DNA of 50,053 bases, from assembly GCA_021161425.1 (NCBI GenBank), contig JAGHAQ010000041.1, forward strand, positions 1 through 50,053, in the 5' to 3' direction. Under the pieces are notes generated by a model. The model saw only the letters and a program-made list of their open reading frames with translations. It searched no databases and was not told the origin of the DNA. Shown here one piece after another: positions 36,277 to 50,053 of this stretch. Within the stretch, counting starts at the first letter, position 1, and every line of letters begins with the position of its first letter. A program made the translations under genes and the position numbers. Origin of the DNA: Candidatus Tharpella sp. Its GTDB lineage: Bacteria > Desulfobacterota > Anaeroferrophillalia > Anaeroferrophillales > Tharpellaceae.

Positions 36277-36306
36277 TTGACAACGCATCCTATTTAAAAC
36301 TATTCT
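36277..36306 (+). promoter_or_regulatory. Candidate sigma70 promoter of the helicase operon
   Basis: TTGACA-N18-TATTCT, ending 38 bp before the GTG start. Confidence 0.45.
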
Positions 36307-36343: not shown

Positions 36344-39194
36344 GTGAATACAGTTAATACCATAGCGCCGGGTGCCAGGGTCGTAATTCGGGATGCCGAA
36401 TGGCTGGTGCGGAAGATGGACAGGACCTCAACCGGCGGATTTGCCCTGACTGTGGTCGGCATTTCGGAACTGGTTAAGGATAAAGAGGCAATTTTTCTTG
36501 ATGAGATTGACACAAATATCGAGGTTCTTGATCCCGTAGATACCAAACTGGTGCCCGACACCTCCAGCTCCTATCAGGGTTCTCTACTTTACATGGAAAG
36601 CCTGTTGCGACAAATTCCTCCAACAGACGAAAAACTCTACGTCGGCCATAAAGCCGCCATGGATCACGTACCCTATCAGCTTGACCCGGCAATTCAAGCC
36701 TTGGAGCAACCCCGACAACGCATATTAATTGCCGATGCCGTTGGCCTTGGTAAGACTTTGGCCTGCGGCATTCTGGTCAGCGAGTTGATTCGCCGAGGCA
36801 AAGGTAAGCGTATTCTGGTACTGGCTGTAAAAAGCATGCTGACCCAGTTCCAGAAAGAAATGTGGTCGCGCTTCACCATTCCTCTAGTTCGCCTTGATTC
36901 GGTCGGCATTCATCGGGTTCGTTCCAAAATCCCCACCAATCACAACCCTTTTTACTATTACGACAAAACCATTGTCTCTATCGACACGCTGAAGCAAGAC
37001 ACCGAATATCGCAACTATCTGGAAAACGCCTATTGGGACATCATCGTTATCGATGAAGCTCACAATGTCGCCCAGCGTGGCAAAGGTTCTTCGCAACGCG
37101 CCAAACTGGCCAAACTTCTCTCCGGACGATCCGATACTTTGATCATGCTATCAGCAACCCCGCATGACGGCCGGGCGCGAAGTTTTGCCAGTTTAATGAA
37201 TATGCTTGATCCCACAGCCATCGCCAACCCGGACAACTATGGGCCGGAGGATATCAAAGGTTTATGTATCCGCCGTTTTAAAAAGGATATTCAGGATCAG
37301 GTGCAGAGCGCCTTTAAAGCCAGAGAGATCAGCAAGGCCTACTGTCAGGCGACCAATGTCGAAGAGGTTGCATATGATATTCTGTCTGAAATGCAATTTG
37401 CCAAGTTGGACCAACACAAAGGTGCCGGACAACTCTTTAAAACTACCCTGGAAAAAGCGTTGTTCTCCAGTCCTGCGGCCTGTCTTTTAACAATTTCTAA
37501 CCGGATCCAGCGTCTTAAAAAAGATGATTCCCCGGAAGCCTTACAAGATATTGAACGCCTTTCGGAACTTGCCGTAGCAGTATTCGACATCACCCCTGTC
37601 AATTTTTCCAAATATCAGAAACTTCTCTTCGTTATCTCCGACAAAAAACATGGCTATGGCTGGACCGGAAAATATAAGCATGACCGTCTCGTCATTTTCA
37701 CTGAACGCATCGAAACCTTACGTTTTCTGGAAATGCATCTTACCAAAGACCTCAAATTGAAAAATAATCAAGTCGCTATCCTGCATGGTACCATGCCTGA
37801 TGTGGAACAACAAAAAATCGTCGAGGATTTCGGCAAGGAAGAGGCCCCGGTGCGCCTGCTAATTGCTTCTGATGTCGCTTCTGAGGGTATCAACCTACAT
37901 TACTTAAGTCATCGACTTATTCATTTTGACATCCCCTGGTCACTCATGGTTTTTCAGCAACGAAATGGACGGGTTGATCGTTATGGTCAGGAGCACACTC
38001 CCTATATTCTCTATCTAGTTAACCAAAGCGTAAACGACAAAATCAAAGGCGACATGCGTATTCTTGAGCTCCTCATCGCCAAGGATGAAGAGGCCGTAAA
38101 AAATATCGGCGACCCCTCCGCCCTCATGGGTGTCTATGACATTGATGAAGAGGAGCGGATAACTGCCAAAGCCATTGAAACCGGTATCAGCAGCTTGGCT
38201 TTTGAACAGAAATTAAACCAAAATAGTGATGAGGCTTTCGACCCGCTCGCCCTTTTAATGGGTGGGAATGAGTCCGACAACAAACCACCAGCAGCCGAAA
38301 ACCGTTTAAGCTCCATGCCCACCCTCTACAATGATGATTTCTCCTACCTTAAAGAAGCCATTGAGCACTTAAGGCAAGCGGAGACCCTTACAGGCCGATT
38401 TTGATGACGACCTACAACAGATATCCCTAACCGCCACCAAAGACCTTAAACATCGACTTAAATTCACTTTGCCCAGCGAGGTCTGGCCGGATGACGAAAT
38501 CTTTGTTCTATCTGCCGATCCTGATGTGATTCAGAAAGAGATCAAACGCAGTCGTAAGGATGAAAATGCATGGCCAAACATCCACTACCTCTGGCAGCAC
38601 AACCCGATCCTTGCCTGGATTAACGATAAGGTTGTTGCTGAATTCGGTCGGCATGAAGCACCAGTATTAACTCTTTTCAGTACTTTGGCTCAGGGCGAAA
38701 CAGTCTTCATTATTTCCGCCCTGATCCCTAACCGCAAAGGCCACCCTCTGGTTCATCGCTGGTTTGGCGTCACAGTTAAGCAAGATGATTTCCAGCAAAT
38801 TGAAAAGTTCAAACCTCTGCTAAATAGAACCGGTCTCGGCAAAAATCGATTCCCCAGCAAAGAGACCCAACTTGACCTTGATTCTCTGCGACGTCTTTTG
38901 CCCGAAGCTGTACAGCAGGCCAAAATCTATATGAGTGAGCAACGGCAAACCTTTGAAGATATGATCAACCCCAAACTCCAGGAACAGCTTGATAAATTAG
39001 AGCGACTTAAAGGCAAACAATACAAACAGCTTGAACTCTTCTATATGGAGAAAAAGCAAATCAACAAGAAAGAGCAGGAAAAGCGCGAAATCGAGCGCAA
39101 ATTTGATGAATTCATCGATTGGGTTGAAGAGACCATGACGACTGAAGACAAGCCCTTTATTCAGGTTGTTGCCGTTTTGCAGGGGGCTCAATAA
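36344..39194 (+). pseudogene. SNF2-family (DrmD-like) helicase interrupted by a +1 frameshift near 38385-38390 (ORFs 36344-38404 and 38469-39194)
   Basis: PG..V..RD.EW.V start, LIADAVGLGKT, DEAH, LSATP, SEGINL and QRNGRVDRYGQ motifs. The downstream frame is open from 38373, and removing one base gives one ORF of about 949 aa. Confidence 0.8.
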
Positions 39195-42100
39195 TGGCCG
39201 GTTTCCTTCAAGATCCGATCTCAATAATCAATCTTATCTCTGACAATCTCCGCGATCGTTACAGCAGATTTCAAGTTTTAAAGGAAATCATTCAAAATGC
39301 TGATGATGCAGGGAAAGGCAACCTAAATATCCACTTAGAATATGGTATTGTCAACGGTTTATCCTCCGCTGAGCACCCACTTCTCCAAGGACCAGCTCTA
39401 TTCTTTCTTAATGATGGTACGTTCTCTGATTCTGATGAAAAAGCTATACGTTCATTCGGTCTGAACCAAAAAGCAGAGGATGCAGCCTCTATTGGAAAAT
39501 TTGGCTTAGGCATGAAGAGTGTTTTTCACTTCTGCGAAGCCTTTTTCTTCTTGGCGCAAGATAATAATAAATCTTATTCAAATATTCTCAACCCTTGGTC
39601 GGGAAGTGATGATTTTAAATCAGTGCATGAAGATTGGGAAGGGTTTACGAAGAGTGATGCTGAGCTGATAAGAAATCGCTTGACCCGAGTTTTTGATAAC
39701 TTGGAAGAAAAGCGAGAATCCTACTTTCTAATATGGCTTCCACTACGTATGAGAAAGCATCTCCAAGTTGATGAAACTGAAGTTGGTAGTATTGTTTCAG
39801 AATTTCCCGGTGATGATGCCCGCCAACTAGCTTTTCTGGATGAAAATATATTACCACAAAAACTTGCTGCCCTGCTCCCTTTACTACGTTGCCTGGAAGG
39901 TATAAGATATTGGCGTGAACAAGAAACTGGCGATCTTGAACCGGCCTTTCACATTCTTCTAAAAGATTATTCCGCACGGATTAAAGGTTTTAAAGAGGAA
40001 AACTGCAGTTTCTCTTTTAGCGGTGAAGTCGAATATTTTGTTGGCAACGACAAGCCATCGTTGCAATCATATCACGGTAAAGAGAGTTTTTTACAATCTA
40101 AAACCCTCTCCTCACTTAAAAAATCCGACTTATGGCCCAAAAGCTACGTGCGTGACGAAAATGGTATTAGCCAAGAAGCCCCCGACAAAGCCAAGCCCCA
40201 TTGCGCCGTATTTTTTTCGCGTTCACCAACCATACAGAAAAGTGAATTAAGACTACGCTGGGCCGTTTTCCTGCCGGTCAAAGCGGGAGAAGAAAATATT
40301 CAGTGTAAAGGTGATATTTCTTTTCGTTTGTTTTTACACGGCTATTTTTTTGTTGATGCAGGCAGGACGGATATTGACGGATTACAAGATAATTCATCAT
40401 CAATAACTTTAAACGGCCAGCTAAAAAACGAAGCTGATCTTCGTAAAACTTGGAATATCTATTTGGCCGAAAAAGGTATCTTAAGGTTGATTTTGCCAGC
40501 CTTGGGCGAATTTACAAGAAAATCGAGACTTTCCTTTCTTGAAATCTATAATCTCTGCACAGCACTTAAAGAAACAAATCTTTTTTGCGAAAAAAGAGAG
40601 CTTATTTGCAATTCATATCAGTGGCTGTGTACTATTACGCCCACCAAACAAGTGTGGAAACTTGTCCCCAGAGACAAAAAAATCCTTCCTTTGCCAACAC
40701 CTCCTAAATCAGTATCTGAGAGACCATGGCAAACATTTACAAAACTTCAACACTTAGACAATGATGTTGTCTTTATTTTAACTAATGTACCGCATTTGAT
40801 GTGCTCTCGTTTACCTCAATGGGATGAAACCGACCTTGAAATATTTCTTGATTCTACTGTTGTAAAAAATTTCAACGACCAGGGCCGTTTGGAATATATG
40901 TTAGATTTTTTGTTCAGTAACGGCGTTAGACCTTTTCTTAAACTACCATCTTTACAAAACAAACTACAGGAACTTCTCCGACAGGCTTTCATCGAATTTG
41001 GTGATGACCTCCGTCAATATCGTCAAAAGATTCATCAATATGTTTCTCTAATTCTACCGGAAAGAAGATATGTTATTAATAATGTTGACCAGAAAATATT
41101 TTGCCAACTCCAAAAAAGTCGAACTGATTGTCTTGTCCTGAATAACTATTTTGATGCAACGGAAAATCCTGGCAAAGCTGATCTCTCTTACGAAGACAGT
41201 CTAAAACTTTTTCATCAACTAAACGATTTAATTCTCAAATACAGCAATACTGAAGATCAAGAAATTGTAAATTCATGCCGAGTGATCATTCGGAAAATAT
41301 TGCAATCCATCAAAGAGGAAGATCGCCATAGACTGCTTAATAGTTCGGCAACCACTTTAAAATTATTAGAAGGGTACGATTGCCAAAACGACACCCTTAA
41401 GTCTCTTTCTGCCGAGGAAATTCGGAAATGTATGAATGATGGTTTATTATTTATTTACTCCTCGGGTATAAATGACCGGCAAAAACATGGACTGGCACCA
41501 AAGTTACAAAAAGTAGTCAAAGGTCGAGTTTTACTGATTCCTAGCGAAACGGGCAAATTACTTTTTGGTTCAAACCATAGTTTATTACCTTGTCATTCAA
41601 ACAGTATACTTAATTGTCTTGGATCGCGAGAACAACGATTGCAATCAATAGAAAACCGGCTAAATTTACTGGCAGATGTTGCCGGTGCTGATCTTCTATC
41701 AGAACAACGTGTACGAGGATTGCGGTACCTTCTCCACGGTACTGAAGACCGATTTTACGATTGTTCTACACTATGGGTTTCCGGACATGAACAAAGTCCT
41801 GTTTGGATAAAACTCTGGCAACAGGTTAAAGAAACCGAAAAAGATAACTGGAATTTACTGGAGAGAACACTGGTCGGTAAAATTCCATCAGATAAATGGA
41901 CAGATCTATCAATCCGAGAAATCAAACCTGAAGGAATTCTGGGTGAGCTTAGAAATAAGGGTACAGATGTTTTAACAGGTAATCTTTTCAACCTGGACGA
42001 GCGTAATGCTGTTCTAAAAGAACTTATCAGTGATGAGCAGCTTTGGAAACAGTTACCGTTTCATGAAACGGTAAGCGGATGCTTGGTCAGCATAACAGAA

Positions 42101-45100
42101 AAGTCTTATCTCGAAACAGGTATTTACCTGCCCGATGAATTGCAAGACCATGTCAACATAATCAAACCTTCAGATGACTTTACCATCAGTAGACAACAAC
42201 GTGATTGGCTTATCCCTCTTTCCAAGCAAGACGTAATCAAAACGGCTTTAAAATATGATCAGGCTGTAAATTTCTGGCAACTGATAATGGACAACCTTGA
42301 GCACCCCAGTTTGGACGCCGACCTAAACTATTTGTTGCGTAATGCCGCTTGGATACCCGACGTCAATTACAATCCTGTAAAGCCATCAGAGGTAATCTAT
42401 CTTGAAAGTATGCAGGATGAGGTAGACAGATTGTTGGTGGCTGCTCGTAACATTTTCTGGTCACCCAGCAAACTGCACAAAAAAGTGCAAAACCACCCAT
42501 CCTTTGCAATGCTTAAGGAATCCTATTTTGCAAAAGATCACGAGGGGCTTGAGCAATTTGGTCTACTGTTGGGCGAAACAGAAGAATATCATATCGGCAA
42601 CTTTGGCAAAGGGGATAATTTCAAACGAGTACTCACTGTATGCTCCCGTATTCCCTTGAACCTGAACCTTCCAGGGTGGACGTTGCTATCCAATGCTTCT
42701 AAAATTTACTCGTTGGATATAATTGAAGAACACCTTTTGCCGGAAATGTTAAAAACAGTCAGCATGGGGAAGATCTTCAACACATTAAAATGGTTGCAAA
42801 ATGAGCACGTCAGAACCGGCCAAAGTGAAAAGAAAAATGTTTTAGTTGCTTTTAACGCATATCTTTCTGCCTTTGTTAATGAGGGTGGAAGCAATCAAGA
42901 TCTTTTCCAATTTCACTTGTTGAACCATGAAGAAAGATGGAAACCAACCAATCAACTTTGTGTCGAGGTCCAAGGTGTTTCGGAAGCCTTTTTGTTGGAT
43001 TCTGTTCAAAGAAAAATTTTATCTAAAATTATTTTTTCAGGTGATCAACATTTCCAAAATAATGTTATTCAACTGAATGCCAGAATTGATGACACTAAAG
43101 AATCTCCAAAACACATTAAGCAGTACTTTTCTCTCTGGAAAGGACTTGTAGCTGATGAAGTGATTTGTGCATTCATTACCCTGCTTGGAGATGACACGGA
43201 AATCTGCTCCCTGGCTAAACAATACCAAGGAAGGCATTCTGTCGATTGGATACGACATGAAATCCCCTGGAACCCAAGCAATTATTGGAGCATTAGCAAA
43301 CAGGAAGCATTTGCAAAACACAGAGTCGTCGTTAAAATTCACGATGACACAGTTGTTAAGACATATTCAATACGTGGTGATAAAATTGAGCTACCTGTAA
43401 GTAAAAATATTGATTCACTGTTTATAAATTGTGTTTTCGGTCTTTCTGCTGGAAGTTATAGAGTCTCAAAATTCAATTTAAGGAATTTTCACCCTGGAGA
43501 GAAAACGAGTGCTGAACTGACAAAACTTCTCAAATCTTCAGCTGAAATCATCTTGAAAGGTGCTTTCAAACAGGAAAACTATAATCTTGATTTGCTATGG
43601 CAAAAATTGGATAAATCAGAGCAACTTGACATTAAAGTAGCCCAAAGCCTCATTCTCAATCATATGCCATTTTATTTGAGACAATTGGGAATACATAAAC
43701 ACCCCATATTGCAGAACCTACTACATCAATGGCACGATGCCTGTTGTAGACAAGAAGAATATTATGATTCACCAAATAAAAGACAAAAATATGAGGATGA
43801 AAAAAGGATGCATTTGCAAAAGATACGTGATCTTTTGCTAAATGATGGGGCGGCTCAAAAGATTGTTTTGAATGCTGTTCGTGCAAAGATTAAAGACTTT
43901 CAGTATACGCCTGCCAGCATTCCTTTTGAATTATTTCAAAATGCTGATGATTCTATGGCAGAACTCGTAGAAATAAAATCACATCAAAATACTGTTCCAA
44001 GGAATGTTAAACGATTCTTGATCCTTGATGATGGTAAATCAATGACTTTCATCCATTGGGGAAGAGCTATCAATGCGGATGGTGGTGCCGGGTTTCCAGG
44101 ACGTAAAAGAGGATTCCATTATGATCTAGAAAAAATGTTGGTACTATCTTCTTCTGATAAATCTGAAAACAACAGGGTCACCGGAAAATTTGGCTTGGGT
44201 TTCAAAAGTGTTTTATTGGCTAGCGATAAACCAAAATTGATTAGTGGTCGCTTGTCAGTAGAAATTATTGCTGGTCTCTGTCCGATACTTCTTAAAAATA
44301 CAGGAGAGCTACGCCAAAAGTTACATGAACATTCACCAAGTAAACAATATCAGGGCACACTTGTAGAAATGCCATTAACCGAAGCATCATCATTAGATGT
44401 AATGGCGTTTTTTCCTGACCTGGCTGGTATCATGACCATCTTTGCTAAACAGATTCGCCAAATTGATATTCATGGGAAGCAAAGCCATTCCTGGGAATGG
44501 ATACCTGACATAATACCTTTATCAGATACAACTTGTCTTGAAATCGGTGAATTGAGCCTGCCAGGTAGTTCAAGACAAAAAGAATTGTTACTTTATTTCA
44601 GGATTGACAAAAGTGGGGTCTTGGTGGCTTTGGGGCCGAAAGGATTTCGACCTCTTCCAAATGAATTACCAGCGGTGTGGGTGGTTGCGCCAACGGGGGG
44701 GCAAGGTCCTGGTTTTTCCATTAATGGTTCCTTTGAACTTGATGCTGGGCGGGCCAACCTTTCCAGTAGCAGTGCTGGCAACCAGGAAATGGCTAAAAAT
44801 CTTGGACAATCTTTTGGAAAACTGCTCTCGGAACTCTACAACTTGACCGAAGATCAAAATCAGTGGGAAGGTATAAAGGGTAAATGTCGTTTAGAAAAAG
44901 ATCTTACTCCCTACCTCTTCTGGTCAAGTTTATGGGAAGTATTAGGTAGGGGATTGTCTTTCACAGGGGGAAATGAAGCAGTTCGCTTGGTTATAACGCA
45001 AGTATTAACTGAAGAAAGTGGCCTCGGCTATCTACTTAGACATTCCGATGCAATGCCGAATGGGCTATGGGGTAAATTTCAGGCCTTAACCAATCCGAAA

Positions 45101-46750
45101 AAGATCAAGACAGTTCTCAAGGGTTGTTTGGAACGGGAAACAGTTTTCAAAGGACTTTCAAGCTGGGAACCGTTAAAAAACATACTGACAGATCCAGGCT
45201 CTACAATTTCTGAATATACATACAATGTCGCAAGAAAGATTACATCAGATATAGGTCTAACAACTGATCAATGGCGTTTCGTACACCTTGATGATCTACT
45301 TAATGACTTCACATCAAGTGGCGGAGAACTAACACCTGAAGCGGCAACCGTGCTTGGAGGAACGCTCAACCATAGAAGCTTAGATCAGGATGAATTTAAG
45401 AAGGAAAAAGAGCAAATCATCAGGGCGTTAAGATCTTTTTCCTTCAAAGCCTTGGACGGTTCTCGGCAGCCATCCAGTAAGCTTCTGTTTCAAAACACTC
45501 ATAAGCGGGCAAATCCCGATGAAGCAAAGCGGGCGGCCTTTGCCCCGGACAGATATATTCTGTCTCCTGAATATGAAGCCAACTGTCTGGATCTCTTTTT
45601 TATCTGTCGCGAGAAGATCGCTATTCCGGCAGATGAAATGGTAACCTGGTTGCTTGACGCCTCGAACGATACAAAGAGAGAAAAAGGATTGAGCTATCTG
45701 CTGGAAGGTGAACATGGAAGAAGTACGGCAAAATCTTTGAGAGGACGCGGTTTACGTGGTACGTGGTTAGACGAGCTAAGTCCGACATCAACACTTCTCG
45801 CAGACTGGGCAGCAGATGATCGTATTGATCTGATTTGCAGAGATCTCAAATCGACAGATGAACTTCGCCAATTTGAATTTTCGGATGAAGAAGATTACTC
45901 TTTACTCGAAAATGAATTAGGCGGATATGCCCCCAAAGAGGTTTTACAGAAAATTTATTGCTGGTGGGCTGCCAACAAAAGTAAATATCTGTTCAAATAT
46001 GAACGCAAAACATATCCTGCAAATATCTCCATTACCTTCTTAGAAGATGATGTTGGCCGCATCGACAGAAAATCATGGTTGACATTGTTCAGTCTCTCCC
46101 ACTTTCATACAATTGGTCGCCAGAGAGACGTACAGCATAAAGGTTTTATTGATAAGTGTATAAGTAGGGGGTGGTGGGATACTTTTTCTAAAGAGCAACC
46201 AGATGAGAGATCTGATGAATGGATGAAGGTTTTGGAAGATTATATCAATGAACAGGTTGATGTAAGCGAGTATGAACTCTGGATGAATCATTTTCCAGCT
46301 ATCTATAAATTTGCTCGGTGGATGGAAGACTATAAAGAGGCATTTCTTTGTATCGAACGTATGGACACTTTAGATTCAAATACAATCGCTGGGATATTAA
46401 GGCCAAAAACAAATACCCAATTTCAGGGTGGCGGAATAAATGCCCCACCCAATGAAAAAAGTTTGGGAATCGGAGTGTGTTTTGTCCTGCGTGAACTAAA
46501 AAGAAAAAAAATCATTAATAATGACCTGGTTATCCCATACTGCTATGTCCCGACCAAAAGTATTCGGGATTTTTGTAACTTACTTGGCTGTAACGTGCTA
46601 TCGGAAAATGGCGGAATTTATAATTCCAAAAAGATTTATGATTTTCTTTACCAGCATTTAGATGAACAAGCTACATTCCTTGATTGTTACGATATACCAT
46701 TACGATTTGTAGCAAATGACCCCGATCTCCTTAAATCAATTTTGAATTAG
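39194..46750 (+). CDS. 2518-aa protein with two sacsin-type GHKL/HSP90-like ATPase modules
   Basis: Module 1: KEIIQNADDA, NDG.F, IGKFGLGMKSVF, HGYFFVDAGR. Module 2 (from about aa 1575): FELFQNADDS, HWG, TGKFGLGFKSV, NGSFELDAGR. The start overlaps the upstream stop (TAATG). Confidence 0.85.
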   Translation: MAGFLQDPISIINLISDNLRDRYSRFQVLKEIIQNADDAGKGNLNIHLEYGIVNGLSSAEHPLLQGPALFFLNDGTFSDSDEKAIRSFGLNQKAEDAASIGKFGLGMKSVFHFCEAFFFLAQDNNKSYSNILNPWSGSDDFKSVHEDWEGFTKSDAELIRNRLTRVFDNLEEKRESYFLIWLPLRMRKHLQVDETEVGSIVSEFPGDDARQLAFLDENILPQKLAALLPLLRCLEGIRYWREQETGDLEPAFHILLKDYSARIKGFKEENCSFSFSGEVEYFVGNDKPSLQSYHGKESFLQSKTLSSLKKSDLWPKSYVRDENGISQEAPDKAKPHCAVFFSRSPTIQKSELRLRWAVFLPVKAGEENIQCKGDISFRLFLHGYFFVDAGRTDIDGLQDNSSSITLNGQLKNEADLRKTWNIYLAEKGILRLILPALGEFTRKSRLSFLEIYNLCTALKETNLFCEKRELICNSYQWLCTITPTKQVWKLVPRDKKILPLPTPPKSVSERPWQTFTKLQHLDNDVVFILTNVPHLMCSRLPQWDETDLEIFLDSTVVKNFNDQGRLEYMLDFLFSNGVRPFLKLPSLQNKLQELLRQAFIEFGDDLRQYRQKIHQYVSLILPERRYVINNVDQKIFCQLQKSRTDCLVLNNYFDATENPGKADLSYEDSLKLFHQLNDLILKYSNTEDQEIVNSCRVIIRKILQSIKEEDRHRLLNSSATTLKLLEGYDCQNDTLKSLSAEEIRKCMNDGLLFIYSSGINDRQKHGLAPKLQKVVKGRVLLIPSETGKLLFGSNHSLLPCHSNSILNCLGSREQRLQSIENRLNLLADVAGADLLSEQRVRGLRYLLHGTEDRFYDCSTLWVSGHEQSPVWIKLWQQVKETEKDNWNLLERTLVGKIPSDKWTDLSIREIKPEGILGELRNKGTDVLTGNLFNLDERNAVLKELISDEQLWKQLPFHETVSGCLVSITEKSYLETGIYLPDELQDHVNIIKPSDDFTISRQQRDWLIPLSKQDVIKTALKYDQAVNFWQLIMDNLEHPSLDADLNYLLRNAAWIPDVNYNPVKPSEVIYLESMQDEVDRLLVAARNIFWSPSKLHKKVQNHPSFAMLKESYFAKDHEGLEQFGLLLGETEEYHIGNFGKGDNFKRVLTVCSRIPLNLNLPGWTLLSNASKIYSLDIIEEHLLPEMLKTVSMGKIFNTLKWLQNEHVRTGQSEKKNVLVAFNAYLSAFVNEGGSNQDLFQFHLLNHEERWKPTNQLCVEVQGVSEAFLLDSVQRKILSKIIFSGDQHFQNNVIQLNARIDDTKESPKHIKQYFSLWKGLVADEVICAFITLLGDDTEICSLAKQYQGRHSVDWIRHEIPWNPSNYWSISKQEAFAKHRVVVKIHDDTVVKTYSIRGDKIELPVSKNIDSLFINCVFGLSAGSYRVSKFNLRNFHPGEKTSAELTKLLKSSAEIILKGAFKQENYNLDLLWQKLDKSEQLDIKVAQSLILNHMPFYLRQLGIHKHPILQNLLHQWHDACCRQEEYYDSPNKRQKYEDEKRMHLQKIRDLLLNDGAAQKIVLNAVRAKIKDFQYTPASIPFELFQNADDSMAELVEIKSHQNTVPRNVKRFLILDDGKSMTFIHWGRAINADGGAGFPGRKRGFHYDLEKMLVLSSSDKSENNRVTGKFGLGFKSVLLASDKPKLISGRLSVEIIAGLCPILLKNTGELRQKLHEHSPSKQYQGTLVEMPLTEASSLDVMAFFPDLAGIMTIFAKQIRQIDIHGKQSHSWEWIPDIIPLSDTTCLEIGELSLPGSSRQKELLLYFRIDKSGVLVALGPKGFRPLPNELPAVWVVAPTGGQGPGFSINGSFELDAGRANLSSSSAGNQEMAKNLGQSFGKLLSELYNLTEDQNQWEGIKGKCRLEKDLTPYLFWSSLWEVLGRGLSFTGGNEAVRLVITQVLTEESGLGYLLRHSDAMPNGLWGKFQALTNPKKIKTVLKGCLERETVFKGLSSWEPLKNILTDPGSTISEYTYNVARKITSDIGLTTDQWRFVHLDDLLNDFTSSGGELTPEAATVLGGTLNHRSLDQDEFKKEKEQIIRALRSFSFKALDGSRQPSSKLLFQNTHKRANPDEAKRAAFAPDRYILSPEYEANCLDLFFICREKIAIPADEMVTWLLDASNDTKREKGLSYLLEGEHGRSTAKSLRGRGLRGTWLDELSPTSTLLADWAADDRIDLICRDLKSTDELRQFEFSDEEDYSLLENELGGYAPKEVLQKIYCWWAANKSKYLFKYERKTYPANISITFLEDDVGRIDRKSWLTLFSLSHFHTIGRQRDVQHKGFIDKCISRGWWDTFSKEQPDERSDEWMKVLEDYINEQVDVSEYELWMNHFPAIYKFARWMEDYKEAFLCIERMDTLDSNTIAGILRPKTNTQFQGGGINAPPNEKSLGIGVCFVLRELKRKKIINNDLVIPYCYVPTKSIRDFCNLLGCNVLSENGGIYNSKKIYDFLYQHLDEQATFLDCYDIPLRFVANDPDLLKSILN

Positions 46751-46759
46751 AGAGAAATT

Positions 46760-49429
46760 ATGCTTAAATTTTCCGCCGGACAAACCGTCTTTCATACTCA
46801 ATTCGGTACCGGACATGTTGAGTTCAATAAAGAAGAAACAGTTATTGTTCGCTTCGATCATGGTTTGGAAGAGTGTATTGCCGGGTCGCTGGAAATAAAG
46901 TCAGATATTGCTGAAAACATTGACAGAGGGAAGCTTTCATCGCCTACTGAAACGGCCTCCCGCGTTTTAGCTGAAGCTATTATTTCGGTAAATGATAATT
47001 GGGGGGTTTTTTCAAAATCAAGAATTGCCCTGCTTCCCCATCAGCTTTGGGTTTGTCACCGAGTTCTTCGGCAATGGCCGGCTCATTATCTGGTTGCTGA
47101 TGACGTCGGGCTTGGCAAAACCATTGAAGCTGGCCTTATTTTATGGCCTTTGTTGGCAAAAGGGCTGGTCAAACGTCTTCTGGTTATAAGCCCAGCCTCA
47201 CTGGTCGAACAGTGGCAATTTAGATTACGGGATATGTTTGATATCCGTCTAACCCGTTATCTTCCTGAGGCGGATACCGCCCGTTCAGATTTCTGGAACA
47301 CTCAAAACCAGATTGTTGTCTCTCTACAAACCCTGCGGGATGATCACAAGGGCCGTCATCAACGCCTGCTTGAGGCCGAGCCCTGGGATCTGCTTATTGT
47401 CGATGAGGCCCATCATCTAAATGCAGACAAAGATTCCGGAGCTACCCTGGGTTATCGCCTGGTAGATAATCTGGTTCGAAAAAATCTGACCAAATCCAGA
47501 ATATTTTTCACCGGCACACCCCATAAAGGCAAAGATTTCGGTTTCTTTGCCCTTCTGAAATTATTGCGACCTGATCGGTTCTCTCCAAACAAACCAATAC
47601 ATCAACAACTTCCCCACCTTCGTGACGTAATTATCCGCAATAATAAACAGAACGTTACGGACATGGAAGGTAAAAAGATTTTCAAACCGATAACGGTAAG
47701 CTCTGAAACCTATTCTTACACCGAAGAAGAAACATCCTTTTATAATATTTTAACAGACTTCATCACTTCAGGGAAAACATACGCTTCCTCCCTTTCCAGC
47801 AATGATCAGCGGGCGGTTATGCTTGTCTTAATCTCCATGCAAAAGCTTGCCTCAAGTTCAGTTGCCGCAATCAGAAAAGCTTTAACCGGACGCCTGTCAC
47901 GCTTAAAAGAAGCGGGTAACAATTTGCAACAGGCCCAGAAACGACAACAGGTTATCCGAGAAATTTTATCCCGTGCTGACGAATCAACCGTTTCATCTTT
48001 GACCGACGAATTGCAGAAACAAGATGAACTGGTTGCCGGATTATCATCGTCCCTGCCGTTGATGAAAGATGAAATCCCCTTATTGGAAATATTAGTAGAC
48101 GCAGCTGACAACATAACATACGAAACAAAAATCAAGAAAATTATCGAAATACTTGAAACTCGCTACCGTAATCGCGCAGTTCTTTTATTTACAGAATATA
48201 AAGCAACCCAGGCATTGTTGATGTCTGAACTAATGCAAAAGTTCGGCGATAATAGCGTTACTTTCATTAACGGTGACCATAGAGCTGAGAATGTAGCTGG
48301 TTCTGACGGTAAACTTCGGACAATCTCTCTCAAAAGAAATGACGCAGCCGATCTCTTCAATGATGGCAAGGTTCGTTTTCTGGTCTCTACTGAGGCCGCT
48401 GGTGAAGGTATTGACCTTCAGGAATCATGTTTTTCTCTTATTCATGTTGATCTGCCATGGAACCCGATGCGGCTTCATCAACGTGTAGGCCGTTTGAACC
48501 GGTATGGTCAAAAACATCCGGTTGAAGTCATTAACTTGCGTAATCCAGACACGGTTGAATCCCGTATCTGGGACAAATTGAATGAAAAAATCAGTAGCAT
48601 CATGCAGGCCCTGGGCAGTGCTATGGATGAACCTGAAGATCTGTTGCAACTGGTTTTAGGAATGGCGTCCCCTTCTTTATTTACAGAGCTTTTTACAGAT
48701 GGAGCAACTGTTCCGGCCGACCGGTTGGACAACTGGTTTGACACCAAGTCAAAAACATTCGGTGGAAATGATGCTATTGAAACCGTCCAGAACCTGATTG
48801 GCAACTGTTCCCGATTCGACTACCAGGATCTCAAAAGAATCCCAAAAAAAGACCTCGAAGACCTCCAACCTTTTTTTGAAACCATGCTCCTTTTGAACAA
48901 ACGGCGAGTATTACATGAGGATTCAGGTTTGTTATTTAAAACCCCGGATGAATGGTTGAAAGATGCCGGAGTCAGAAGGCGTTATGAAGACTTGGTTTTT
49001 TCTCGAGACTTAAAAGGGAAAGATGCGGCTCTGCGAGTTGTCGGCGTGGGACATAAAGTGTTTGATCAAGCTTTAATGCAAGCCGGCGGATACGATGCCT
49101 GCCTCACACAATTTTCCGACCTAGAAGAGCCATTGGTAATCTTTAAAATATTTGACCGAGTCACGTCCCAGGATGGTAATGTTCGACAAGTTATAATCGG
49201 CATTAAGGGTAATAAAGATGAAATATTGCAGGATTGGCAGCTGATAGATCTGATAAATCAATTGTTAAAGTCAAAAAAACCAAGTTCTGAAAGTGAAAAT
49301 CGTCTCGAATCACAGGCATTACATAGTATTATTAAAAACTCAGAAAATACCCTCAAGCAGCATATAGAAAGTTTGAATCTTCCCTTTAGCGTACCTGAGA
49401 TTAAACCTTTGGCCCTGTTCATACCTTAA
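46760..49429 (+). CDS. SNF2-family (RapA-like) helicase/translocase
   Basis: LLPHQ, LVADDVGLGKTIE, DEAHH, FTGTPH, TEAAGEGIDLQ and LPWNPMRLHQRVGRLNRYGQ motifs, with an N-terminal G..V.H..FG.G.V small domain. Confidence 0.92.
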   Translation: MLKFSAGQTVFHTQFGTGHVEFNKEETVIVRFDHGLEECIAGSLEIKSDIAENIDRGKLSSPTETASRVLAEAIISVNDNWGVFSKSRIALLPHQLWVCHRVLRQWPAHYLVADDVGLGKTIEAGLILWPLLAKGLVKRLLVISPASLVEQWQFRLRDMFDIRLTRYLPEADTARSDFWNTQNQIVVSLQTLRDDHKGRHQRLLEAEPWDLLIVDEAHHLNADKDSGATLGYRLVDNLVRKNLTKSRIFFTGTPHKGKDFGFFALLKLLRPDRFSPNKPIHQQLPHLRDVIIRNNKQNVTDMEGKKIFKPITVSSETYSYTEEETSFYNILTDFITSGKTYASSLSSNDQRAVMLVLISMQKLASSSVAAIRKALTGRLSRLKEAGNNLQQAQKRQQVIREILSRADESTVSSLTDELQKQDELVAGLSSSLPLMKDEIPLLEILVDAADNITYETKIKKIIEILETRYRNRAVLLFTEYKATQALLMSELMQKFGDNSVTFINGDHRAENVAGSDGKLRTISLKRNDAADLFNDGKVRFLVSTEAAGEGIDLQESCFSLIHVDLPWNPMRLHQRVGRLNRYGQKHPVEVINLRNPDTVESRIWDKLNEKISSIMQALGSAMDEPEDLLQLVLGMASPSLFTELFTDGATVPADRLDNWFDTKSKTFGGNDAIETVQNLIGNCSRFDYQDLKRIPKKDLEDLQPFFETMLLLNKRRVLHEDSGLLFKTPDEWLKDAGVRRRYEDLVFSRDLKGKDAALRVVGVGHKVFDQALMQAGGYDACLTQFSDLEEPLVIFKIFDRVTSQDGNVRQVIIGIKGNKDEILQDWQLIDLINQLLKSKKPSSESENRLESQALHSIIKNSENTLKQHIESLNLPFSVPEIKPLALFIP

Positions 49430-49464
49430 AATCAGGGCGAATCAATTATTTATAGTTGAAAATT

Positions 49465-50053
49465 ATGGCCATCGATATTACCGGCATCAACAACGAGAAC
49501 GAGTTTTACACCCATCATTATCTCTCCGCTATCCTGGAAAATGATTTGAAGGATGTCTTTGCGGAGTGGAAACGGCGGGATGAAAAGGATGGGGTTGTCC
49601 AACCTTATGTAACTCTCAGAAGTTTGCGAAAAAGTTTTTTCGTCACCCAAGACCTTCTCAGCCGAGAGCGAAAAAACCGTGAGCGGCTTGCGCTGCAAAA
49701 AGATTTACTGGCCGGGTTTCTCTCCGCTCTGGGTTATGAATGGCAAAATGAACTGGTCACTATGGATGATGGTTCTGTTATTCCTTTAATTGGCGGTATC
49801 AATAAAGCCGATGGCTCGCCAGATCTGTGGATTATTCAGGCCCTGGATATTTTTGCTGAGGAGGCTGATCCTCTGGAATTGCGGCTCGTTCCTGAACAAT
49901 ATCCAGACGGTGTTGAAGCAGAGAAGGTTCTTGATCTCCCTTTTACCGAGATTATCAGCAAAAATATCTTCAGCCGCAGTGAACCTCCCCGCTGGTTGAT
50001 TCTTATCAGCAGCACCCAACTTCTTCTCATTGACCGAACCAAATGGAATGAGA
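49465..50053 (+). CDS. Probable large restriction-modification-type DNA methyltransferase (DrmMI/Eco57I-like), 5' partial
   Basis: Open from ATG 49465 to the window end: MAIDITGINNENEFYTHHYL...EPPRWLILISSTQLLLIDRTKWNE. I recognise this N-terminus from MTases that follow DrmD-like helicases. Catalytic motifs lie beyond the window, so the product is inferred. Confidence 0.65.
   Translation, partial: MAIDITGINNENEFYTHHYLSAILENDLKDVFAEWKRRDEKDGVVQPYVTLRSLRKSFFVTQDLLSRERKNRERLALQKDLLAGFLSALGYEWQNELVTMDDGSVIPLIGGINKADGSPDLWIIQALDIFAEEADPLELRLVPEQYPDGVEAEKVLDLPFTEIISKNIFSRSEPPRWLILISSTQLLLIDRTKWNE

Follow-up and report, generated by a model that had tools for sequence, protein, structure and literature searches.

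A sacsin-like/SNF2 helicase cassette at the armA-armB junction of an ARMADA type II operon: a candidate anti-phage module with a predicted glycosylase-fold domain

Introduction

Type II ARMADA systems consist, in strict order, of the BrxHII-like SNF2 helicase ArmA, the PglX-like ArmB with its GxG and NPPW motifs, ArmC, a fused YprA/DUF1998 helicase, and the UvrD-type ArmD with a RelE-like N-terminus, and all four genes are needed (10.1101/2025.09.15.676423). Class I DISARM, in which a SNF2 helicase likewise precedes an N6-adenine methyltransferase (MTase), has drmA, a separate DUF1998 gene (drmB) and the PLD gene drmC as its defining genes (10.1101/2021.12.28.474362). Here we analyze a 50,053-nucleotide stretch of Candidatus Tharpella sp. 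DNA (the window, which is the entire contig C108 of a 63%-complete genome), at the end of which an operon that by homology is ARMADA type II carries, between armA and armB, a cassette of two genes coding for a giant sacsin-like protein and a further SNF2 helicase.

Several described systems offer points of comparison for this cassette. Tiamat (TmtA) and Tiamat-like systems feature a large sacsin-related GHKL ATPase with swappable C-terminal domains and frequent helicase neighbors, and one Tiamat-like type is embedded in a type I restriction-modification system (10.64898/2026.09.30.754977). END nucleases sense hypermodified phage DNA by means of a catalytically inactive C-terminal domain of the EndoIII/Ogg fold, whose fusion partner is a nuclease (PLD or NucS-like) or a McrB GTPase (PMC12191111). 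Dag1 and Dag2 are helix-hairpin-helix (HhH)-fold glycosylases, not recognizable as such by sequence, that are directed against phages with modified guanine; Dag1 needs the Lys of its HhH and an essential Asp 66 residues after this Lys, and a nearer Asp is partly dispensable (10.1101/2025.10.29.685425).

The cassette as an independent pair in an exchangeable slot

We denote loci by L, genomes by G (G000 being the window genome) and the seven runs compared by X1-X7. The cassette is an insert of 10,271 bp (39194-49464), in agreement with the proposal of the first-pass annotation that the sacsin-like and SNF2 genes fill an internal slot of 10.2 kb: where the slot is empty, as in G013 of the same genus, in G022 of the same order and on a contig of X6 that runs at 39199 directly into armB, armA is joined to armB. 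Against this empty allele, the cassette starts exactly at the armB ATG and inherits the TAATG overlap of armA. Among 16 other genomes of the window genus, five match the ArmB N-terminus, one of them distantly (G014, 32%). The slot holds a four-helix-bundle gene (~0.4 kb) in G015 and three genes, including one for a helix-turn-helix (HTH)-IrrE protein (~3.2 kb), in G007, and the cassette precedes armB both in G016, whose armA lies on another contig, and in L028. A contig of X1 switches at 39166 to G015-type sequence; none of the seven runs has a contig spanning the whole locus. In this genus the armA-armB junction is an exchangeable slot. The start of the window armB is 93% identical to that of the cassette-free G015, versus 79% for a housekeeping neighbor and 77% for the cassette-bearing G016, a mosaic that would fit exchange by recombination in the flanks. 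The locus contributes a same-genus series of this slot, with a start-codon-precise insertion and a polymorphic armA frameshift, at a junction that is uninterrupted in nearly all relatives, and offers a natural series for how defense systems nest without recombinases.

A weak similarity of the two junctions had been taken at first pass as a possible insertion scar, a reading that did not hold up. The second of the strings (which begins at 49433, not 49434) has only ATGGC(C), 5-6 bp at the start codon, in common with the first, and an ATGGC start is also found in 3 of 9 sacsin-like relatives inspected. Without the start codon, the local score of the junctions is reached by 14 of the 889 gene-upstream regions of the genome (base-shuffle p 0.004, for a string chosen post hoc), and with the start codon by 40 of 889. 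The orthologous spacers of L001 and L028 do not preserve the further CAG and TCAAT matches, and of 49 direct-repeat families the 20 largest do not include the string. We accordingly reject a target-site duplication or scar on the grounds of this weak, unconserved match and its absence from the 20 largest repeat families.

The two cassette genes are an independent pair. Sacsin-like sequence adjoins a helicase of the 889-aa type in 22 of 22 genome loci (two of them on the same contig, one with the giant gene split and inverted downstream, one with a truncated copy and one with a helicase fragment only), and armB is next to the cassette in a single one of these. Elsewhere the neighbors are McrBC and an OLD nuclease, DUF4007 and an MTase, DUF1998 and UvrD proteins, a YprA-type helicase or, on one plasmid, DISARM genes; in G138, PglZ, an MTase and HerA lie beside the cassette. 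Plasmids gave seven matches, of which three were inspected: the helicase is directly downstream in two, including the one beside DISARM genes, and the distant third is without a helicase. Scoring of 7,976 candidates yielded 518 relatives of the giant protein at E≤1e-10, but in a sample of 400 other genomes from the phylum only 2 have it; six peptide patterns found no relative of the cassette helicase in viral contigs. The GC content of the sacsin-like gene (0.40) and of the cassette helicase (0.43) is lower than that of armA (0.47) and the genome (0.48), and broken or split copies occur in L009, L010, L022 and on a contig of X1. We regard this widespread cassette as the part of the locus that matters. 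We did not find the pair described in the literature searched, which took in the main text of the ARMADA preprint and sections of the Tiamat preprint; it is likewise not described in the portions consulted of PMC3710099, PMC12839542 and 10.1101/2025.09.30.679545.

Several smaller observations touch on the slot and the pair. In G007 the slot (L111:2197-5045) codes for a 371-aa protein without a family match, the HTH-IrrE (Peptidase_M78) protein and a 166-aa protein that is PIN-like by eye; in G015 (L112:2270-2718) the four-helix-bundle (23S rRNA IVP) gene replaces the last armA codons and is flanked by short complementary C-rich and G-rich repeats. Inserts are commoner between armB and armC (11 of 53 measurable loci), where a 986-aa gene recurs in enterobacterial ARMADA loci (L071, L080, L081, L089 and L098). 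In L031 (3-10001) a sacsin-SNF2 pair directly precedes intact armA and armB genes, which makes for a second location beside ARMADA. L017 (1339-6738) has a shorter, 1799-aa variant before the helicase, with the C-terminal domain in common and the second ATPase module only weakly so. An X1 contig that is without two bases at window position 42313, in the sacsin-like gene, suggests a broken allele in a sister strain.

Twin ATPase modules, a predicted glycosylase fold and an SNF2 motor

The giant protein displays two GHKL ATPase modules that are homologous to each other (hhalign 98.2%), and the closest solved relatives of the second are sacsin, Grp94 and HtpG. Two glycine motifs are present in 136 of 151 full-length relatives, and motif I is matched strictly twice in 102 of them. 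Like TmtA, the protein has an N-terminal Hsp90/sacsin-like ATPase (PF25794, NF047352). The TmtA profiles, however, match its ATPase motifs only (best 84 bits), and it differs from Tiamat in its two ATPase modules, its glycosylase-like tail and its constant SNF2 partner. In place of a C-terminal PD-(D/E)xK (DUF3883) nuclease, the tail is all-helical in both structure models; Pfam gives no match to DUF3684 or DUF3883 at E≤0.1 in the giant protein, the middle of which lies outside the models. The sections consulted of the Tiamat preprint describe no type with two ATPases and a glycosylase fold, and the word glycosylase is absent from the preprint (10.64898/2026.09.30.754977).

The last ~270 residues are the most conserved part of the giant protein after the ATPases and are predicted to fold like HhH-GPD DNA glycosylases. 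A model of residues 2150-2518 is all-helical, with a predicted local distance difference test score (pLDDT) of 84 and a predicted template modeling score (pTM) of 0.79, and VIA-align places HhH-type glycosylases at ranks 1-22 of 48,161 chains (best 3n0u, Z 10.9, root-mean-square deviation (rmsd) 3.7 Å, 193 residues aligned), with the next unrelated row at Z 4.9. A second model, from a relative 36% identical, is again all-helical (pLDDT 89, pTM 0.90) and returns HhH glycosylases at ranks 1-23 (best 3n0u, Z 11.3, rmsd 3.7 Å, 200 aligned). The fold matches include TAG and, with two of the ranked rows in each of the lists, the queuine salvage hydrolase DUF2419, which we take to be kin to the HhH-GPD fold. 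The domain occurs in 997 clusters at 50% identity, many of them fragments, and is C-terminal in the 247 sequences checked (median tail 10 residues). Small stand-alone Bacteroidota proteins including DUF6043 score 0.93-0.94 against the region 45641-46747 by ESM Atlas features, a weak lead to a common fold.

The domain apparently dispenses with the canonical catalytic residues of active HhH-GPD glycosylases. The position of the catalytic Lys (2429) has Lys in 0 of 248 sequences, with C, N or H instead, and that of the catalytic Asp (2453) has Asp in 0 of 248, with Pro in 238, in a register chosen by visual comparison with the GxGxKTA and VDxHVxR motifs and not by superposition. Fixed residues are G2427, R2433 and E2434 (248 of 248) and D2500 (247 of 248). 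In its predicted fold and in the absence, by this register, of the canonical Lys and Asp, the domain resembles that of the END nucleases as they are described (PMC12191111), a likeness at the level of fold and description; it differs in being fused to two GHKL ATPases, and Pfam, NCBIfam and PADLOC found no PLD, NucS-like or McrB domain in the giant protein. Dag1 and Dag2 differ in being stand-alone active enzymes, and the text consulted mentions no fusion, ATPase or helicase (10.1101/2025.10.29.685425).

The cassette helicase has intact SNF2 motifs. Its identity to ArmA is only 25-27%, on account of which we reject the idea that it is an armA duplicate. Because the PADLOC profile PDLC02634, labeled DrmD, matches it over its full length at 1076 bits, automatic annotation will label it DrmD, and annotation tools thus mislabel it.

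The host operon

By homology, the host system is ARMADA type II and not the class I DISARM of the first-pass annotation; as the host operon is already known, the DISARM claim adds nothing new. The window ArmA 5′ frame is 60% identical to the reference ArmA of L026 over 629 aa (residues 6-631), and the 3′ frame is 40% identical to residues 690-951 of the same reference and 82-89% identical to G013 and G015. L026, an E. coli copy, can be assigned to ARMADA type II because the eight residues mutated in the ARMADA paper sit at their published positions (K136, D236, G605, N971, K110, D234, K266 and D454). The armB frame encodes the N-terminal part of a large adenine MTase: of its 26 plasmid matches, 23 fall on annotated MTases, identity to the reference ArmB is 33-42%, and the MTase of L028, which is 88% identical to the window ArmB N-terminus, is a protein of 1619 aa with EPAMGS and NPPW motifs; MTase motifs are also present in L029. 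Since the window ends as contig C108 ends, the MTase motifs and the genes 3′ of armB fall outside it. In this comparison the window differs from described ARMADA type II in its frameshifted armA and in the 10.27-kb cassette, and the main text of the ARMADA preprint does not contain the words sacsin, GHKL or MutL (10.1101/2025.09.15.676423).

The earlier claim that the flanking genes are a normally adjacent pair of SNF2 helicase and adenine MTase stands: armA and armB are adjacent (≤200 bp) in 71 of 71 measurable metagenome loci, out of 73 found by the ArmB N-terminus, the two others being L028, with the cassette helicase 5′ of armB, and L032, which is too short. Comparison of homologous loci, as had been advised, shows this regular adjacency together with variable inserts within the window genus. 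The label of class I DISARM fell: both window helicases score below the cut-off of 610 bits of the DrmD equivalog NF038317 (349 and 308 bits), and instead of the class I core (drmA, separate DUF1998 drmB, PLD drmC) the relatives carry a fused helicase and UvrD. Two plasmid loci with annotation run from SNF2 through an MTase and a ~2,110-aa helicase to a UvrD-type helicase; in G007 and G016 of the same genus, a ~2,100-aa helicase incorporates DUF1998 as a fused part and is followed by UvrD, and in other loci this fused, ArmC-type helicase is linked to armB. The downstream DUF1998/YprA-type helicase for which a search had been suggested thus exists in relatives in fused form, not as a separate DUF1998 gene. 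A DUF1998 search of the window genome gave 0 matches, which is uninformative because the assembly is 63% complete, and no additional armB, armC or armD turned up in the same assembly by tblastn. Contig C56 has the start of a YprA-like gene, which was rejected as ArmC, being only 37-43% identical to ArmC and resembling L020 instead.

The window armA is split by one extra base. At this point contigs of runs X1-X5 are one base shorter (X6 and X7 show no such row), and G007 has an intact 951-aa ArmA that is 93% identical to the window 5′ frame. One 129-nt contig of X3, a run that may not be independent of the window, is identical to the window here, and the frameshift therefore looks like a real, polymorphic strain allele; on the same evidence, and with the same caveat, we set aside an assembly error as the sole explanation. 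Run X2 has an otherwise identical intact armA stretch, with the armA-cassette junction on another of its contigs. As all four genes are needed and armA is split, the window allele is probably an inactive ARMADA with intact cassette genes.

Possible functions of the cassette

On balance, we lean toward the view that the armA-armB junction of ARMADA II carries an independent cassette that is likely an anti-phage module of its own and is predicted to sense modified bases. We posit that its C-terminal domain would bind flipped-out modified bases in the manner of the inactive EndoIII/Ogg domain of the END nucleases, that the twin ATPase modules could close an Hsp90-like clamp on the DNA bearing these bases and that the SNF2 motor would load or drive the clamp, whereupon the phage genome might be stalled or handed to nucleases of the host system. 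The cassette, without a recombinase, would use the operon promoter and the TAATG coupling, and may pass from strain to strain through homologous recombination within armA and armB. More tentatively, and with rather less confidence, we propose a new type of modification-dependent system, free of nuclease and methylase, in which a twin-GHKL clamp, a glycosylase-fold reader (or a new glycosylase) and an SNF2 motor would trap or strip modified phage DNA, and which would nest in methylation-based systems such as ARMADA to catch the phages that escape by base modification. If the cassette does defend against base-modified phages, it would bring a GHKL-clamp architecture to the few modification-dependent defenses, and bacterial sacsin-like proteins would gain a testable function.

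Several points weigh against this interpretation. Neither cassette gene yields an effector nuclease, or any nuclease or methylase family, in Pfam, NCBIfam and PADLOC, with ~1,200 residues of the giant protein outside the models (~480-1480 and ~1950-2150), and the killing step is for this reason a guess. The HhH-GPD fold is recovered by VIA-align alone, with both best Z values below the ~13 advised for helical proteins, and the two models have 23 alignment rows in common. For the C-terminal domain, Foldseek (PDB, BFVD) gives no match, as do Pfam and PDB sequence searches, and hhalign against 18 housekeeping HhH-GPD proteins gives no profile-profile match (1.4%); a second alignment of Foldseek's own matches recovers DUF2419 alone (Z 7.7-8.4), and ESM Atlas pointed to unnamed clusters and to DUF6043 (0.93-0.94, below its recognition mark). 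The link of the pair to phage defense is one we infer, and several loci (L003, L008, L010 and L015) have housekeeping-type neighbors. As for the host, armC and armD were not found in the window's own incomplete assembly and lie on contigs separate from armB in G007 and G016, and among the 73 metagenome loci, enterobacterial copies that are nearly identical account for ~45.

The main rival, which we consider unlikely, is that the C-terminal domain is itself the effector, an active, non-canonical glycosylase that excises modified phage bases, with the clamp and motor giving processivity. The invariant charged residues R2433, E2434 and D2500, the presence of TAG and the DUF2419 hydrolase among the fold matches and the want of any other effector found speak for such an enzyme, and D2500 lies 71 residues after the position equivalent to the HhH Lys, close in spacing (a matter of spacing only) to the essential Asp of Dag1; yet this position is without Lys in all 248 sequences, where Dag1 needs it, and the positions themselves were read by motif register and not by residue-level structural alignment. 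The same fold could also speak for a mobile DNA-repair or stress module instead of a defense, in which a lesion reader, a chaperone-like clamp and a remodeling motor land in tolerant junctions. HhH-GPD folds are mostly repair enzymes, and sacsin and Hsp90 are chaperones; together with the lack of a nuclease match and the loci without defense neighbors this would suit a repair module, which we nevertheless judge improbable, as the patchy spread in the phylum, the occurrence on plasmids, the broken and split copies and the frequent defense neighbors fit conflict genes better.

We think it quite improbable that the cassette serves the host system as an accessory, its helicase cooperating with ArmA or standing in for it in a hybrid ARMADA. 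The split armA of the window, the immediate succession of helicase and armB in the window, G016 and L028, the pair just upstream of armA in L031, the PADLOC placement of the helicase family under DrmD and the plasmid pair adjoining DISARM genes could all be read in this way; against it, armB is not next in 21 of the 22 genome loci, the helicase is far diverged from ArmA, X2 has the intact armA stretch along with its cassette junction on another contig, and the slot holds unrelated genes in G007 and G015. That the locus is instead a class I DISARM operon (drmD-drmMI-drmABC) interrupted by an insert, with a target-site scar left behind, is highly improbable: a SNF2 helicase does precede an adenine MTase, gene types that ARMADA and DISARM have in common, and DrmD profiles are the top PADLOC and NCBIfam matches, but the DrmD equivalog scores stay under their cut-off, the relatives have the fused DUF1998 helicase and UvrD in place of drmA, drmB and drmC, and the junction match is not conserved.

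Other features of the window

The features of the locus are collected in Table 1. The first-pass description of four co-oriented genes behind one candidate promoter holds as to the common strand and the promoter-like site; the open reading frames (ORFs) number five and not four, because the one-base frameshift splits the first helicase, which the first-pass annotation had overlooked along with the glycosylase-like tail of the giant protein. Promoter-like sites number 3, against 1.0±1.0 in shuffles.

Table 1. Coordinates of the locus features in the window
Feature	Position	Strand	Basis or remark
Sigma-70-like promoter candidate 5′ of armA	36277-36306	+	TTGACA-18-TATTCT; 10/12 consensus match alone
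armA 5′ frame, SNF2/RapA-type helicase, 686 aa	36344-38404	+	Walker A GLGKT, DEAH, motif VI
Extra base shifting the armA frame, polymorphic among strains	38388-38390 (approximate)	+	Contigs of X1-X5 one base shorter
armA 3′ frame (listed ORF 38469-39194, 241 aa)	38406-39194	+	Stop overlaps next ATG (TAATG)
Left junction ATGGCC; cassette starts where the armB start codon sits	39194-39199	+	Empty alleles: G013, X6 contig
Cassette gene 1, sacsin-like, 2518 aa	39194-46750	+	PF25794 (two stretches), NF047352 above cut-off
GHKL (Hsp90/sacsin) ATPase module 1	39194-40633	+	EIIQNADD and GKFGLG motifs
GHKL ATPase module 2	43631-45043	+	ELFQNADD and GKFGLG motifs; homologous to module 1
C-terminal domain, ~residues 2245-2518, predicted HhH-GPD glycosylase fold	45926-46747	+	Structure models
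Cassette gene 2, SNF2/RapA-type helicase, 889 aa	46760-49429	+	Helicase motifs intact
35-bp spacer, cassette to armB	49430-49464	+	Without convincing duplication of the left junction
armB start (ATG 49465), ARMADA N6-adenine MTase, 196 codons	49465-50053	+	Homology; frame open, cut by contig end

To the left, the neighbors are four divergent genes of the 2-oxoacid:ferredoxin oxidoreductase type, with no integrase or insertion sequence among them, and the window has no tRNA, so that the left border is as it was first described, the check for integrases and insertion sequences covering these neighbors alone. In L111 (11656-11789), a ~120-bp element lies 3′ of the oxidoreductase genes; more than 20 similar copies of it are scattered over the window genome, and it is possibly a small repeat element. 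Elsewhere in the window genome, on contig C56 (L130, 677-2953), an AbiEi/AbiEii pair directly precedes the start of a second YprA-type helicase, one distinct from ArmC.

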